64,000 nt of DNA from a virus. The position numbers and the translations under genes are program-made. The notes below the pieces were generated by a model. It was not told the DNA's origin and ran no database searches. It saw nothing but the letters and a program-made list of their open reading frames with translations. Shown piece after piece: positions 11,564-19,021 of the stretch; positions within the stretch are counted from its first letter, which is position 1, and every line of letters starts with the position of its first letter. Location: the UHGV virus genome UHGV-0125682; one strand, given 5' to 3'.

Positions 11564-11713
11564 ATTTTTCTCCCGGTCATGGGTTAATAAGTAGGCAAAC
11601 TATGGGGAGTATGTGATTTTGACGGTAGTATCGTCCCCCTGAAAATAACATTCTCCATACCCTCTCAACCGTACCGCATAGCGGAATTTTTACGGTTTAG
11701 AGGGGGAAATCCT

Positions 11714-14700
11714 TTGGACAAATTACTTCATTCAATCAGTGAAGCCTCCAGCTTAGGCGAACTGATTGAAATTGTTAGTCGGTTGCATAAATTACGTGCT
11801 GTTGCGACCTTTGGCGTCAGGAAAGCCGATGGCGTCAGTATTCAGAAAACACGCCGTGCAGCAAACAATGCCGCAGTAAATCTTCTTAATTCCCTTCCGC
11901 CCGGCTTCGATGGGGCGAAATTAACTGACGAACAACGTCAGATTCTTGCTGGGTATACCGGTGAAGGCGGCCTGACAGATGGTGAGGGCAGCCAATACGA
12001 ATACTACACGCCACAGTTTATGGCTGAAGGTATATGGGATCTGTTTGCTGACTACGGTATTGATGGCGGGCACGTACTGGAACCATCAGCGGGCACAGGT
12101 ATTTTCCAGGAGACAAAACGGCAGGGCATGATAATGACCAGCGCCGAACTGTCTCCGATTTCTGGTCGAATAAACCAGCTTTTGCACCCGGAAGACGATG
12201 TGAATATCGGGGCGTTTGAGGCGCTGGCGGCGAAAGATGCAATGTATGACCACGCTGTTGGTAACGTACCGTTTGGTGAAGGGCGTTCCGGCGTTGCCGG
12301 GCTTGATCCGGCATATGCAAACGAGAAGAACGTTGGCAATTACTTTGTGCTGCGCACGATCGACAAGGTTAAGCCAGGTGGGCTTATCGTATTGGTGGTG
12401 CCGAATGGCATGACCGATGGTACGAAATATAAAAAATTGCGCGATAAAGTCAGCCGTAAAGCGGAATTTTTGGGCGCACATCGTATGCCTTCCGGTACGT
12501 TCAGCGAATCTGGAACAGATACCGTGGTGGACGTATGGGTATTGCGTAAACACCCGGAAACCTTCCTGGAGATGATCCCCGACACGGATGATGCAACGCT
12601 CAAATCGGCAAACGTCCTTTGGGATACCTTCCTCAAAGGGAAATGGTTTACAACCGATGGGAAGCGATTTGTTTACGGCGACATGGAACGTACCAGCTTC
12701 CGCAATACCCTGGTGGTGAAAAAAGACGGTCGTGTATCCAATGAGTCGATGAAAACCGCGCTATCTCGTCGCTTTGATAGTCGCATCAATTGGGATTTGC
12801 TCGGCGTAACTACTCAGGCATGGCAGGGCGCGAAAGTGGGCGATAAACGCCTTGTAGGCGGTATCTGGCATGAGTTTGATGGTCTGAAATGGGTTAAGGA
12901 CACGACAACCAAATCCTCCGCGCTTGATGTAAGTCGATATGGTGTTTCGACGTTTGGCGATCTGCAGATCGCGTTCCAGTCAACAAACGGGATTCTGGCT
13001 TTGTCATGGGACCAGATATCGGCGATCGCGTCCGACTATCCATCGGTTGTCAGTGATGAAGTGGCAGCAATGATTCGCTTTGCTGGCAAACAGCGAGAAA
13101 AAGACAGGGAGCGCGTTATGCGCGGTGCGTTGATAGGGCAGTTGATCAACAAGGCACTTGATTTGCGTAACCTGGGGGTGAACGTTGATGACAAACTGGC
13201 AGATGCATCCCGCCTGGCGGCAGCAGAAGTTGCGAAGTATGGACCACCGCACGCGATTAAGCTGAATGGGCTTGCTGAAGCTGGCGCTAAAAACTGGATG
13301 ACGTTCACTGGCAATGTGAAACAGGATGGTTCCACTTCTGACCTTCTGGCAGGGCGACTTGATGTAACGGATGGTGCTGCCGGTATTGACTTTACGCGTC
13401 CTGAACAAGTGATAGCACATCTTTTTAGTGATGTAGCCCTTAATCCTATAACGCTGGGCGACTTTCGTGAGGCGTTTGCTGGTGAACTGCCAGAGGACGA
13501 CGACGCGGTCCTTGAATACCTGGCGAAATTTGATGATATCGCTATTGATGGGTATGGCTGTCTGCTGCCGATGGACCGCGCCACCAGCGGCGATGTTGCA
13601 ACCAAAACAGCACTGCTGGTGGGCTGGCGTGATGCGTCAACAGGTGAGCAGAAAGCGAACTTTGAGCGTCAGTTGGCGAAAATCGAAGAGAAACGCATTT
13701 TCACGCCACTAAATAAAGTCACCGTTAATCTGAATGCCCGCTGGCTGGATCGCCGCTTGATAAAAGAGTTCCTGGCAGAGCAGGGCTATGACGAGTTTAA
13801 GTACACTGAACCTGATCTGAAGGTCGTCGATGGCATTCTGGTATCTCCGGACGATTACGAAGGTAAGGACGGGGTATTTACCGGCTATCAGCTACGAACC
13901 GTAAACGGCAAAAACGGGAATGAGTTCAAGAAGGCCAACAATAAAGACGGCTTCCTGAACCAGTTAGAAAACTACCTGAACGGTGTTAAACCGCGTGGGC
14001 AGAACGCTAACGAGTACCTGGATAAAATTGCTCAACTGGAAGTTAGTTTTAACGACTGGTTACGCACTCACCCGCAGGCTGATCAGATAGCCCGCGAGTA
14101 TAACGACGCATTCAATGGTTTCATTCCGTTCACGCATTCTGACGCACCGCTTGGCCTGGAAGGGCTTAGTGGAAAGCGCATTCCTCTTACTTATCAGAAT
14201 GAAGAAGTTCGGCGCTTGTCAGAAGATGGGCGCGGCATCATGGGATTTGGTACCGGGCTGGGTAAAACCACGACCGCGCTTGCGCTTGAGGCGTATAACT
14301 TCGAAACAGGTCGCACTAAACGCACGTGTATTGTTGTTCCGAAGGCGGTTTATCAGAACTGGTATCACGAGGCACAGAGTTTCTACAGTGCTGATGCCTT
14401 CGCCAATATGATGTTTATCGGTTTGGATGAAGTTCGTGATGACAGCGGAAATATTCTGACCGCGCCGGTGCTTGATGAAAATGGCGAACCACGCCTCGAC
14501 AGTAACGGGCAGCCTCTTACCAGAAATGTTGTGAAAGAGTCCGCCAGCGCCGTTATCGTTCAGCGTATGAACATGATCCCGTCGTCAAATTGGCGAACGG
14601 TCATCATGACAAAAGAACAATTCGCGTCTATCCCGCTACGAGAAAAAACCATCGAGGAGAACTCACAGCAAGCTGTCTTTAATGCTGTGGAAATGGGGCG

Positions 14701-17700
14701 TCTTGACCTGGCGTCCGGTAAACACCGTGATGCGCAGAAGAAGAACAAGATTAAGGATCAGGCCGCGAATACCGGTACAACGAAGAAGCAGAATATCCCG
14801 TACTTTGAGGATATGAACTTCGATAGCGTGATTGCCGACGAGGGGCATAATTACCGCAACTCCTTTAATGCCGGGCGTGAAGCGGGACAACTGGCATATT
14901 TGCCTAACCCGGCAGTATCCAAGATGGCCCGCGACATGGCTGTAAAAGCTGCGTACATGATGAAACGCAACAACGGGCGTGGTGTAGTCATGCTGACGGC
15001 AACTCCGCTGGTGAACAGTCCGATTGATGCCTTCAACATGCTGTCTACTGTCATTCCGCAGGAAGAGTGGATGCGCATGGGTATTGTTACGCCGGATGAT
15101 TTCGTTCGCGTGTTCGGCAAAACAGCCACAGTTCAGGTTCAGAAAATTTCCGGTGAGGTGGAAGAGAAGCAGGGGCTGGTGGGCTTCCAGAACCTTGATG
15201 GTCTGCGTGGTATTTTCCACCGTTGGACCACTCTGAAGACTGCCGCAGATGTCGGAGCGACGGTTAAAATTCCCGATATCATCGAGAACACCTTGCAGAT
15301 CCCGATGACAGGGGAGCAGGAGGCTGCTTATGAAGAGCTTCGTAAGCGTGCTCAGGAGTTAAGTCGCAATGATGAGCTGACAGTCGATGAAAACGGGCAT
15401 ATCACTAACGACAAACCGGATGATTTCATCTTCTCCATCATCCGCGACATGGATAAGGTTGCTATAGATCCGGATCTGTATGCCAGTGCGATTACATTCC
15501 AGTTCCCCGTTGAGCTTGCAGACAAGGTAAAAGCTATTGCTGATGCCCTGCCAAAAGTCGCAGGCGGTAAAGTGGCAGATGATGCAGACGAGGCCGAAGA
15601 AGACGGCGCTGGTGGACTGGTCAGTACGCGTACCAGCAAGGTAGTGAAGACCACCTTTAGTGAACATCCGGCGCATGTTGAAATACGCGCCAGCATTGAA
15701 CTGGAAGCTGAAATACTGAAGGCCATTGCTGCCGCCGGGATTGATCTGCAGCAGGTATCACACCCCATCCCACCGAAGTATGCCGCGCTGATCGAAAACC
15801 TTCGTGAAGGTCTGAAGAACGGTAAACAAATTGTCTTCATTGATGAAAAAGCCCAGCACCAGAAGCTGCGCCGTATTATCGCCAGTGCACTGCAAATGCC
15901 GGAGCAGGAGATAGGCATTATCAATGCGACGACCGTTAGCCAAGCTGGCGGCATCAAGCTGAAGAAGGTGAATAAACCGACTGAACCTACTCCGAATAAA
16001 AACGGTGAATACAAAGAAGGGGCATGGGAAACCTACTACAGCAAACTTGCCCAATATGAGGATTATCTCTCAGCTAAAAATGATGCTGGCCTTGAGGGCA
16101 TGGAAGGTATTGCCGCCGACTATAACGAAGGTCGCACGCGCATCATAATCTGTAACAAGAAGGCTGAAGTAGGTATTAACCTGCACATCGGGACAACCGA
16201 TATCCACCACCTGACACTACCCTGGACACCAGCCAGTATCGACCAACGAAATGGGCGCGGTGCGCGCGTAGGGTCACCGCAAGAGAAGGTCAATGTTCAC
16301 TACTATTGTGGCAAAGGCACATTCGATGACTTCCGTCTGGATACGCTTAAACGTAAGAAAGACTGGATCAAGATGGTGATGACCTCCGACATGTCAGAGA
16401 TCGCCAATGGTGATGCGGATGATGCTGATGAACGCGCCATTATGCTGGCGGCAAACCCGGAAGAACGCCGCGCAATCATGGCTCGCCAGGCGCAAGAGCG
16501 TGAAGAACGTCTGAAACTGAAAGCACAGCGCGAGGCCAACAATGCTCTCGATATCTACCTGAAAGCGGCAAACGCCGCCGGAAAAGATATCGGCATGATG
16601 GAGACAGAACTGAAAAGCGCGATGGAACAGATAGAGTATTACCAGCGAAATCTTGACGACCTGATAAAAGCGGGTACGAACAGGAATGGGCAAAAATACG
16701 CGCTTGAGCAGTTGAGTAGCTACAGAAAACGTGCGCGGGTGCTGCGGTTTGCGATCACCAGGGCAAAAGACGCGGATACCATAATGAAACGCTCTCGTGG
16801 TGATGTGGAGCGCGCTATTAAGTCTGGTGTGCTGGATATCAGTATCGATGTTATTCAGAACCCACAGGAATATATGCGCACTGACAAGAATATCCTGTTG
16901 CATAAAGGTAGTTATTACCGTGCAGTCATTGATGATCGCGAAACAACAGCGATTGTCCGGGTGGAAAAAATTGACGGTGAAAAAGCACAATACCTCTGCC
17001 GTATCGCCTGGCTGGATAGAGCAAGTCGTTACGCTCGAGCACCGGGGTCAATCGTTACATTGCCGTTTGACTCTGTGATTGAAGCGGTAACTTTTGAAGA
17101 GGGGGTAGCTGAATCGCGCGCAACGGCTGCGCGAGGTGTTCAGTGCCACCAGCTATCAACAATACTTACTCGCGATCAGTTCTATGATGCTATTCGCAAT
17201 GGGGTAATGAATGTTATTGCTGGTAAACCTGGTAATGCATGGGGCGGTGGGTCAGCTATTAAATACTGGGCATATCGCACAGATGATGGTCAGATCGCGC
17301 TGTCATCGGCCTATGATGGCGTGATAGGCCAAAAAATCGGGCGAGCATCGGATATAGCACCTGAGCGATGGATATATCCTGATGGCAACGACGAGGCGCT
17401 GAAGCGTGAAGTGGCAAAAATACAAGCCAGTGATAACCCGCTGAATATCGTGGACGGCGAGGGATTCCTCCAGGCATTGTATGGGTATGATTACACCCAG
17501 GGAATGCAGGCATGGGGCGCACAGGCAACGATGGATGATGTTGCCCATGAGTTCGAAAACTGGATGGCTGGGCGTGGTCTGTCAGGTCGTTCGCTTAATA
17601 AAGTCACTTCTGAAGATATTCTTAGCTTGTTCCGCAAACCGTCCGGAGAAGGTCTGGAATCATTCTGGAGGACCGTGCTGGCATACCGTTTATTCCAGGG

Positions 17701-18550
17701 CAGGATGAAAGCCTTTAGCAATATCGATGATATTGAACGGATGTTTAATCAGGTCAAGATCGCGAAAATTAAGGCGAAGATCGAAAAAACACGTTCTGCG
17801 CTGGTGGCCTGGCGCGATGCATTGTTTGAGCAATATAAATCACTCAGTGATGCAGATGGATGGGCGGCATTGGAACAGCTGGCGAATAATGGGGTAGATG
17901 GAGCGAAACTCGCCATTGTTCAGGCTGATAACCCCCTGGAATCACCGGCAGCACAGTGGATTAAGGTGGGGGCTGTCATCAATGCATTTGATGAAAAACA
18001 CATTAGTAAGGACGATTTTGCTGATGCTGTTTCTGTTAATCGCCTGGTAGAAATGGCTACCCGCCGCGCCCGTGAGTTGAAAGACGGCGACTATGTGAAT
18101 GAGTTGCCGGATACGCTCAAATCGGCAACGTGGCAGGACTATGTATCGCTGAAAAACGGCGGGGCCACTGAATCAGAGATCGCGGAAAGGCTTGAGCAGG
18201 CTGAAAGCAAAAGAGAAGAGCAGGCGGCAGTGGCTGAAGCCAGAGCTGATGAAGCGGCGAATGATGACTATATCATTGTGGTTAATGATAAGCCGATTCG
18301 CGCTAAGGCGCGTGTTCGCGGGCGCTGGTGGAGCGTCAGCGAGGACGTTGGCGCGGTTTATCTCATTGCCGACCAACCAGGTTCCTCGACAATACGGAAC
18401 GCCAAAGACGCGATTAAGAAGATTGGCGGACGTTTCTGGAATTTTGAAGCAAACCCGGTTGCTGATGTGAACTTTGACCGTCCTGCATGGATGGTATCTA
18501 CGCGTTACTCGGTAGATGAACTGCGTAAAATAATCGCCGATGCGGCCTAA
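11714..18550 (+). CDS. darB: DarB-like antirestriction protein: N6-adenine methyltransferase fused to DExH helicase
   Basis: 2278 aa; AdoMet motif EPSAGTGIF, NVPF catalytic motif, Walker A GFGTGLGKTT around aa 842, DEGH motif around aa 1040. Confidence 0.8.
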   Translation: MDKLLHSISEASSLGELIEIVSRLHKLRAVATFGVRKADGVSIQKTRRAANNAAVNLLNSLPPGFDGAKLTDEQRQILAGYTGEGGLTDGEGSQYEYYTPQFMAEGIWDLFADYGIDGGHVLEPSAGTGIFQETKRQGMIMTSAELSPISGRINQLLHPEDDVNIGAFEALAAKDAMYDHAVGNVPFGEGRSGVAGLDPAYANEKNVGNYFVLRTIDKVKPGGLIVLVVPNGMTDGTKYKKLRDKVSRKAEFLGAHRMPSGTFSESGTDTVVDVWVLRKHPETFLEMIPDTDDATLKSANVLWDTFLKGKWFTTDGKRFVYGDMERTSFRNTLVVKKDGRVSNESMKTALSRRFDSRINWDLLGVTTQAWQGAKVGDKRLVGGIWHEFDGLKWVKDTTTKSSALDVSRYGVSTFGDLQIAFQSTNGILALSWDQISAIASDYPSVVSDEVAAMIRFAGKQREKDRERVMRGALIGQLINKALDLRNLGVNVDDKLADASRLAAAEVAKYGPPHAIKLNGLAEAGAKNWMTFTGNVKQDGSTSDLLAGRLDVTDGAAGIDFTRPEQVIAHLFSDVALNPITLGDFREAFAGELPEDDDAVLEYLAKFDDIAIDGYGCLLPMDRATSGDVATKTALLVGWRDASTGEQKANFERQLAKIEEKRIFTPLNKVTVNLNARWLDRRLIKEFLAEQGYDEFKYTEPDLKVVDGILVSPDDYEGKDGVFTGYQLRTVNGKNGNEFKKANNKDGFLNQLENYLNGVKPRGQNANEYLDKIAQLEVSFNDWLRTHPQADQIAREYNDAFNGFIPFTHSDAPLGLEGLSGKRIPLTYQNEEVRRLSEDGRGIMGFGTGLGKTTTALALEAYNFETGRTKRTCIVVPKAVYQNWYHEAQSFYSADAFANMMFIGLDEVRDDSGNILTAPVLDENGEPRLDSNGQPLTRNVVKESASAVIVQRMNMIPSSNWRTVIMTKEQFASIPLREKTIEENSQQAVFNAVEMGRLDLASGKHRDAQKKNKIKDQAANTGTTKKQNIPYFEDMNFDSVIADEGHNYRNSFNAGREAGQLAYLPNPAVSKMARDMAVKAAYMMKRNNGRGVVMLTATPLVNSPIDAFNMLSTVIPQEEWMRMGIVTPDDFVRVFGKTATVQVQKISGEVEEKQGLVGFQNLDGLRGIFHRWTTLKTAADVGATVKIPDIIENTLQIPMTGEQEAAYEELRKRAQELSRNDELTVDENGHITNDKPDDFIFSIIRDMDKVAIDPDLYASAITFQFPVELADKVKAIADALPKVAGGKVADDADEAEEDGAGGLVSTRTSKVVKTTFSEHPAHVEIRASIELEAEILKAIAAAGIDLQQVSHPIPPKYAALIENLREGLKNGKQIVFIDEKAQHQKLRRIIASALQMPEQEIGIINATTVSQAGGIKLKKVNKPTEPTPNKNGEYKEGAWETYYSKLAQYEDYLSAKNDAGLEGMEGIAADYNEGRTRIIICNKKAEVGINLHIGTTDIHHLTLPWTPASIDQRNGRGARVGSPQEKVNVHYYCGKGTFDDFRLDTLKRKKDWIKMVMTSDMSEIANGDADDADERAIMLAANPEERRAIMARQAQEREERLKLKAQREANNALDIYLKAANAAGKDIGMMETELKSAMEQIEYYQRNLDDLIKAGTNRNGQKYALEQLSSYRKRARVLRFAITRAKDADTIMKRSRGDVERAIKSGVLDISIDVIQNPQEYMRTDKNILLHKGSYYRAVIDDRETTAIVRVEKIDGEKAQYLCRIAWLDRASRYARAPGSIVTLPFDSVIEAVTFEEGVAESRATAARGVQCHQLSTILTRDQFYDAIRNGVMNVIAGKPGNAWGGGSAIKYWAYRTDDGQIALSSAYDGVIGQKIGRASDIAPERWIYPDGNDEALKREVAKIQASDNPLNIVDGEGFLQALYGYDYTQGMQAWGAQATMDDVAHEFENWMAGRGLSGRSLNKVTSEDILSLFRKPSGEGLESFWRTVLAYRLFQGRMKAFSNIDDIERMFNQVKIAKIKAKIEKTRSALVAWRDALFEQYKSLSDADGWAALEQLANNGVDGAKLAIVQADNPLESPAAQWIKVGAVINAFDEKHISKDDFADAVSVNRLVEMATRRARELKDGDYVNELPDTLKSATWQDYVSLKNGGATESEIAERLEQAESKREEQAAVAEARADEAANDDYIIVVNDKPIRAKARVRGRWWSVSEDVGAVYLIADQPGSSTIRNAKDAIKKIGGRFWNFEANPVADVNFDRPAWMVSTRYSVDELRKIIADAA

Positions 18551-18586: not shown

Positions 18587-19021
18587 ATGACGACATTAAT
18601 TGACACTGTAAAACCGACGGAATCCTACCTTGAGGACATTTTGCCGCAGGCGCTCAATGGCAGGAGTGAAGAGGCGTTTCTGGATGCATATCTGAATGGC
18701 ATGGTGGAAAGGCTGAAACGAGATCCACAGCTTTATCACCTTTATGGGCCGTGGTGGCCTGCGCTTAAAACGTTATTGCTGGAGCGCGGCGACATATCAT
18801 TTGGACAAGTTGTAGATAGTGATGTGGCAGAGATCTACAAAATGAGTCGCCCGGCGCTTACGGTTTTGGCTGGGCATCTGTATTCGAGCGATCGCCTGGA
18901 AAATGACGCGGTATACAATCCTGTTCATGCTCTGGAAGTCGCACCTTATGCCGATGATACAGAGCCATACGTGTACACAAGTTACGACGAGTCTATAGAG
19001 AAATATCGAATTATGGGGTAG
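18587..19021 (+). CDS. hypothetical protein
   Basis: ORF following darB-like gene. Confidence 0.5.
   Translation: MTTLIDTVKPTESYLEDILPQALNGRSEEAFLDAYLNGMVERLKRDPQLYHLYGPWWPALKTLLLERGDISFGQVVDSDVAEIYKMSRPALTVLAGHLYSSDRLENDAVYNPVHALEVAPYADDTEPYVYTSYDESIEKYRIMG

Follow-up and report, generated by a model that had tools for sequence, protein, structure and literature searches.

The open reading frame at nucleotides 11714..18550 (+ strand) of the window, the whole 64,000-nt stretch of DNA that was analyzed, encodes the antirestriction protein DarB of a P1-like phage-plasmid of the D6 type and is an ordinary gene that is already known and annotated in public records. The explanation that best accounts for the data as a whole, and that we hold to be very probably correct, is that of a DarB orthologue that is packed into the virion and protects DNA in cis, and whose C-terminal tail is DarB-specific, homologous to the tail of P1 DarB and a likely adaptor.

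The gene is a single, real open reading frame of 2278 aa with a TTG start. The sequence GAGGGGG is located at nucleotides 11700-11706, 7 nt 5′ of the TTG codon (11714-11716). The start is supported by the alignment with P1 DarB, in which the first residues of both proteins pair, and an identical start is annotated in the record of phage D6. The D6 gene orf15 (ASR76325.1), annotated as "defense against restriction; similar to P1 gene darB", is the same gene: it encodes 2278 aa from a TTG codon, shows 98.5% DNA identity over its full length (6837 bases) and differs by few substitutions, of which five nonsynonymous and three synonymous ones fall in the tail. Its neighbors are also those found in the window, with a CHAP or TIGR02594-family hydrolase gene upstream and ulx downstream; elsewhere, the window element departs from D6, its DdrB having a replaced C-terminal region. 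The gene is present in at least 113 E. coli or Salmonella phage-plasmid records (at least 80% of it covered). The features identified are the following, with residues numbered along the protein:

11700..11716, + strand: Shine-Dalgarno sequence and TTG start of darB (read directly from the sequence)
11714..11803, + strand: residues 1-30, position of the P1 DarB capsid-targeting sequence (positional homology only)
11804..12001, + strand: residues 31-96, LPD36-type helical N-terminal domain (GxGU motif and domain definition of PMC5512222)
12002..12703, + strand: residues 97-330, gamma-class N6-adenine DNA methyltransferase (Pfam and motifs)
12704..14173, + strand: residues 331-820, methyltransferase-helicase linker (colinear with P1, without family assignment)
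14174..16333, + strand: residues 821-1540, SWI2/SNF2-type helicase or translocase (Pfam, motifs, PADLOC, NCBIfam)
16334..16822, + strand: residues 1541-1703, post-helicase helical extension and three predicted long helices, coiled-coil or hairpin (AF2 and DrmD models)
16847..17089, + strand: residues 1712-1792, predicted small beta-barrel (AF2 strands 180-252, tail coordinates)
17099..17308, + strand: residues 1796-1865, predicted small alpha/beta unit (AF2 secondary structure)
17342..17713, + strand: residues 1877-2000, helical domain (AF2 model, alignment, hhalign)
17723..18256, + strand: residues 2004-2181, predicted long-helix bundle (AF2 model)
18269..18547, + strand: residues 2186-2278, C-terminal-most alpha/beta domain
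18587..19021, + strand: ulx homologue (46% identity to P1 Ulx over 138 aa, E 7e-45)

The two enzymatic parts that an earlier note on this DNA had recognized, a methyltransferase and a helicase, were confirmed by Pfam and by motifs as N6_Mtase and SNF2 domains. The methyltransferase carries TP at residues 99-100, motif I (EPSAGTG, 123-129) and motif IV (NVPF, 184-187), matches the Pfam families N6_Mtase (152-282) and Eco57I (173-250) and is 54-55% identical to P1 DarB. It is preceded by a domain of the LPD36 type defined by Iyer et al. 2017 (PMC5512222), in which residues 81-86 (YTGEGG) form the GxGU motif; over residues 1-100, identity to P1 DarB is 50%. The capsid-targeting signal of P1 DarB was mapped experimentally to its N-terminal 30 residues, which are enough to direct a reporter to the capsid (PMC9024508), and residues 1-30 of the window protein, by their position in the alignment, are a putative capsid-targeting sequence. 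The linker matches no Pfam family at E<=10 and is colinear with P1 DarB at 29-46% identity. In the helicase region (38-69% identity), two lobes separated by an SNF2-type insert contain Walker A (GTGLGKT, 846-852), DEGH (1042-1045), motif III (LTATP, 1094-1098) and motif VI (QRNGRGAR, 1511-1518). Pfam matches are SNF2-rel_dom (840-964), ResIII (826-1047) and Helicase_C (1464-1520), and PADLOC and NCBIfam models of DrmD, ZorD and DpdE match as well.

P1 DarB (YP_006479.1, 2255 aa) shares this architecture throughout: N-terminal signal region, LPD36, methyltransferase with NVPF, linker, SNF2 and a tail of ~740 aa, with motifs at equivalent positions and the partner genes ulx, darA and ddrB in common. 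BLASTP yields one end-to-end alignment of 2372 columns with 40% identity, in which window residues 1500-2278 are colinear with P1 residues 1497-2251. By region, identity is 29-69% over residues 1-1600 and 19-26% over residues 1600-2278; the coiled-coil and the loop following the winged-helix-like unit hold indels of up to 24 aa, the largest being of 21-24 aa. When D6-type and P1-type tails are compared with hhalign, positions 1-738 pair with 1-718 (probability 100%, E 3e-58, 662 columns), and each of the seven predicted tail domains individually matches its colinear P1 counterpart. The naming of the protein as DarB-like is borne out by this alignment and domain order, together with the ulx homologue directly 3′ of darB (similar to P1 ulx according to the D6 record) and the DarA and DdrB homologues encoded upstream. 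Ulx of P1 is a partner required for incorporation of DarB into the virion (PMC9024508, PMC12810830). P1 differs in gene order, as prt and pro, divergently transcribed, adjoin darB. The earlier note had also suspected an extra effector or capsid-targeting module at the C-terminus. Relative to P1 DarB, the window DarB has no extra C-terminal domain: its tail matches that of P1 domain for domain, and the whole C-terminal region can be aligned, the outcome that the note had named beforehand as speaking against its own suggestion.

The uncharacterized C-terminal part, put at about 1200 aa (residues 1100..2278), proved to be smaller. Residues 1100-1540 are the remainder of the SNF2 motor, comprising the last part of lobe 1, the insert and the motif VI-bearing lobe 2 (38-66% identical to P1 DarB), and a DrmD-like extension runs to ~1660; the part without family assignment is therefore ~1661-2278, about 620 aa, or 740 aa if its start is taken as 1541. 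That no motif could be assigned in the C-terminal half consequently holds for residues ~1661-2278 and fails for the helicase residues 1100-1540. Residues ~1661-2278 found no match at permissive thresholds in Pfam, NCBIfam and PADLOC, nor any in PDB-sequence searches. PHROGs returned for the tail two function-less matches only: phrog_1685 (unknown function), which covers the whole tail and is the D6-type full-length family itself, and phrog_21007, whose match spans residues 1540-1641.

The SNF2 motor is also common to DISARM DrmD, ZorD, DpdE and BrxHII, whose similarity extends through lobe 2 and ~120-150 aa past motif VI (to residues 1661-1671). The window protein scores 44 bits with DrmD, far below the family cut-off of 610, and these proteins lack both a methyltransferase fused in the DarB arrangement and a DarB-type tail; they serve host defense, whereas DarB serves phage anti-defense. 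A closer likeness is found in the methyltransferase-SWI2/SNF2 dyad of polyvalent proteins, of which DarB is the archetype (PMC5512222): LPD36, an EcoKI/TaqI-like adenine methyltransferase and an SNF2 ATPase with inserts are the same, as is the phage late or virion gene context. The wider polyvalent-protein set lacks the ~620-aa DarB tail, in which no further Pfam domain was detected.

Outside the DarB proteins of P1-like elements, the searches turned up no copy of the tail. Searched exhaustively with phmmer, 1.84 billion representatives yielded just 32 tail matches; the full-length ones are all of 2192-2302 aa, with the match placed at the C-terminus. For the ten matches with a longest contig on record (nine full-length and the 1648-aa fragment P0028), that contig is of 13-97 kb, and in six cases, Vibrio matches included, of 64-97 kb; a 97-kb contig carries the full-length member of the P0028 cluster (2263 aa, Pseudocitrobacter). 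With tblastn against 50,697 phage records, P1-like phages alone matched. Past motif VI, tail length is 720-785 aa in all 11 family members examined. The tail is under purifying selection, with dN/dS of 0.12-0.16 (0.04-0.23 in 40-codon windows) and no nonsynonymous change in the terminal domain.

The AF2 model of the tail has a mean pLDDT of 82.6; as its pTM is 0.45 and the alignment is shallow (20 sequences), it says nothing firm on the arrangement between domains. Long helices are predicted at H42-82, H86-113 and H117-163 (tail coordinates); DrmD models align as far as residues 1661-1671, and a PDB profile search with residues 1541-1703 returned coiled coils only. This segment carries many indels across the family. 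In Foldseek, the barrel locally matches Tudor, KOW and LSm barrels (probability ~0.99, TM-target 0.7-0.8), though with E>0.09, and the search with the AF2 model gave the tail no firm structural relative. The next unit, with the order H256-267, E269-270, H271-277, H280-288 and strands 293-325 (tail coordinates), contains a conserved QFYxxIxxG motif (1822-1830) and, from this secondary-structure order, may be winged-helix-like. Residues 1877-2000 carry the family-wide motifs YPDxxDExLK (1888-1897) and GxDY...YG..AT and match the P1-type tail with an hhalign probability of 97.6%; for the acidic long-helix bundle (pI 4.7), one of the least conserved tail regions, the value is 70.7%. The terminal domain is strongly constrained and shows the motif LxDxxGKxGxL..AK..LK..GA.F......G.WW.IP. 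Within the tail, basic segments are limited to the long helices (residues 1582-1703, pI 9.9) and the terminal domain (pI 9.1); all others are neutral to acidic, which fits poorly with a general DNA-coating role.

By homology with P1, DarB would be made late, directed into the capsid by its N-terminal signal, aided by the other Dar proteins, and ejected together with the DNA. The adenine methyltransferase coupled to the SNF2 translocase would then guard the ejected DNA in cis against type I restriction. Experiments in P1 point to such packaging and cis protection, Dar acting in cis only, on DNA of the same virion (PMC12707154); the DarB mechanism was described as "not defined" as of 2024 (PMC11109961).

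Between D6-type elements and P1, no portion of the Dar system has diverged more than the tail. Its identity across the family is 13-32%, versus 36-64% for the enzymatic part, and the 19-26% between window and P1 tails contrasts with 39-49% for Ulx, DarA, DdrB and the first 1600 residues of DarB. Such divergence is also compatible with an interaction surface turned toward the host, the tail then binding type I restriction complexes (HsdR/HsdM) or another defense protein in an arms race. Among D6-type genes, moreover, alleles vary most in the barrel (a hotspot with 66% identity over residues 1701-1800 between the window and L003/L004), and this hotspot does not co-vary with Ulx, as L003 and L006 have different hotspot alleles and an identical Ulx (WP_000209223.1). 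However, dN/dS is well below 1 across the tail, the saturated dS of the hotspot (>1.1) looks like an imported divergent segment and not like positive selection, and tail length and domain order are kept. As an inhibitor that diffuses freely should work in trans, the restriction of Dar protection to cis also counts against this reading, which we consider unlikely.

A modified form of the idea of the earlier note, in which the tail docks DarB on a DarA-Hdf or Ulx scaffold within the capsid or keeps the 250-kDa protein able to pass through the phage tail tube, agrees with the confinement of the tail to virion-forming P1-like elements and with its absence from the many other methyltransferase-SNF2 dyads that plasmids and other phages encode (PMC5512222). 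DarB incorporation needs Hdf, DarA, DdrA and Ulx (PMC9024508, PMC12810830), and the P1 capsid structure shows unassigned density around DarA (PMC12810830). Nevertheless, it is N-terminal deletions that abolish packaging (PMC9024508), the divergence of the tail (about 20% identity) is unmatched in its virion partners (39-46%), and the hotspot varies while Ulx stays identical; a role in assembly or ejection is thus doubtful. A nuclease, peptidase or ADP-ribosyltransferase hidden in the tail is very improbable: polyvalent proteins often fuse many effector domains (PMC5512222) and ~620 aa await assignment, but the database searches gave no match with a function, the 34 columns conserved in at least nine of ten tails are devoid of His, Cys and Ser and form no recognizable catalytic set, and structure prediction yields coiled coils and helical bundles along with a small barrel and a small alpha/beta domain.

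We favor a tail that acts as an adaptor and not as an enzyme. Residues 1541-1660 form an SNF2-type post-helicase helical extension, and residues 1661-2278 comprise several small predicted domains: coiled-coil, SH3-like barrel, winged-helix-like unit, two helical domains and the constrained terminal alpha/beta domain. This fold composition suggests that the tail may hold the methyltransferase-translocase on incoming DNA, or mediate self-association or contacts with partners. The role of the tail is a matter for DarB in general and not special to the window.

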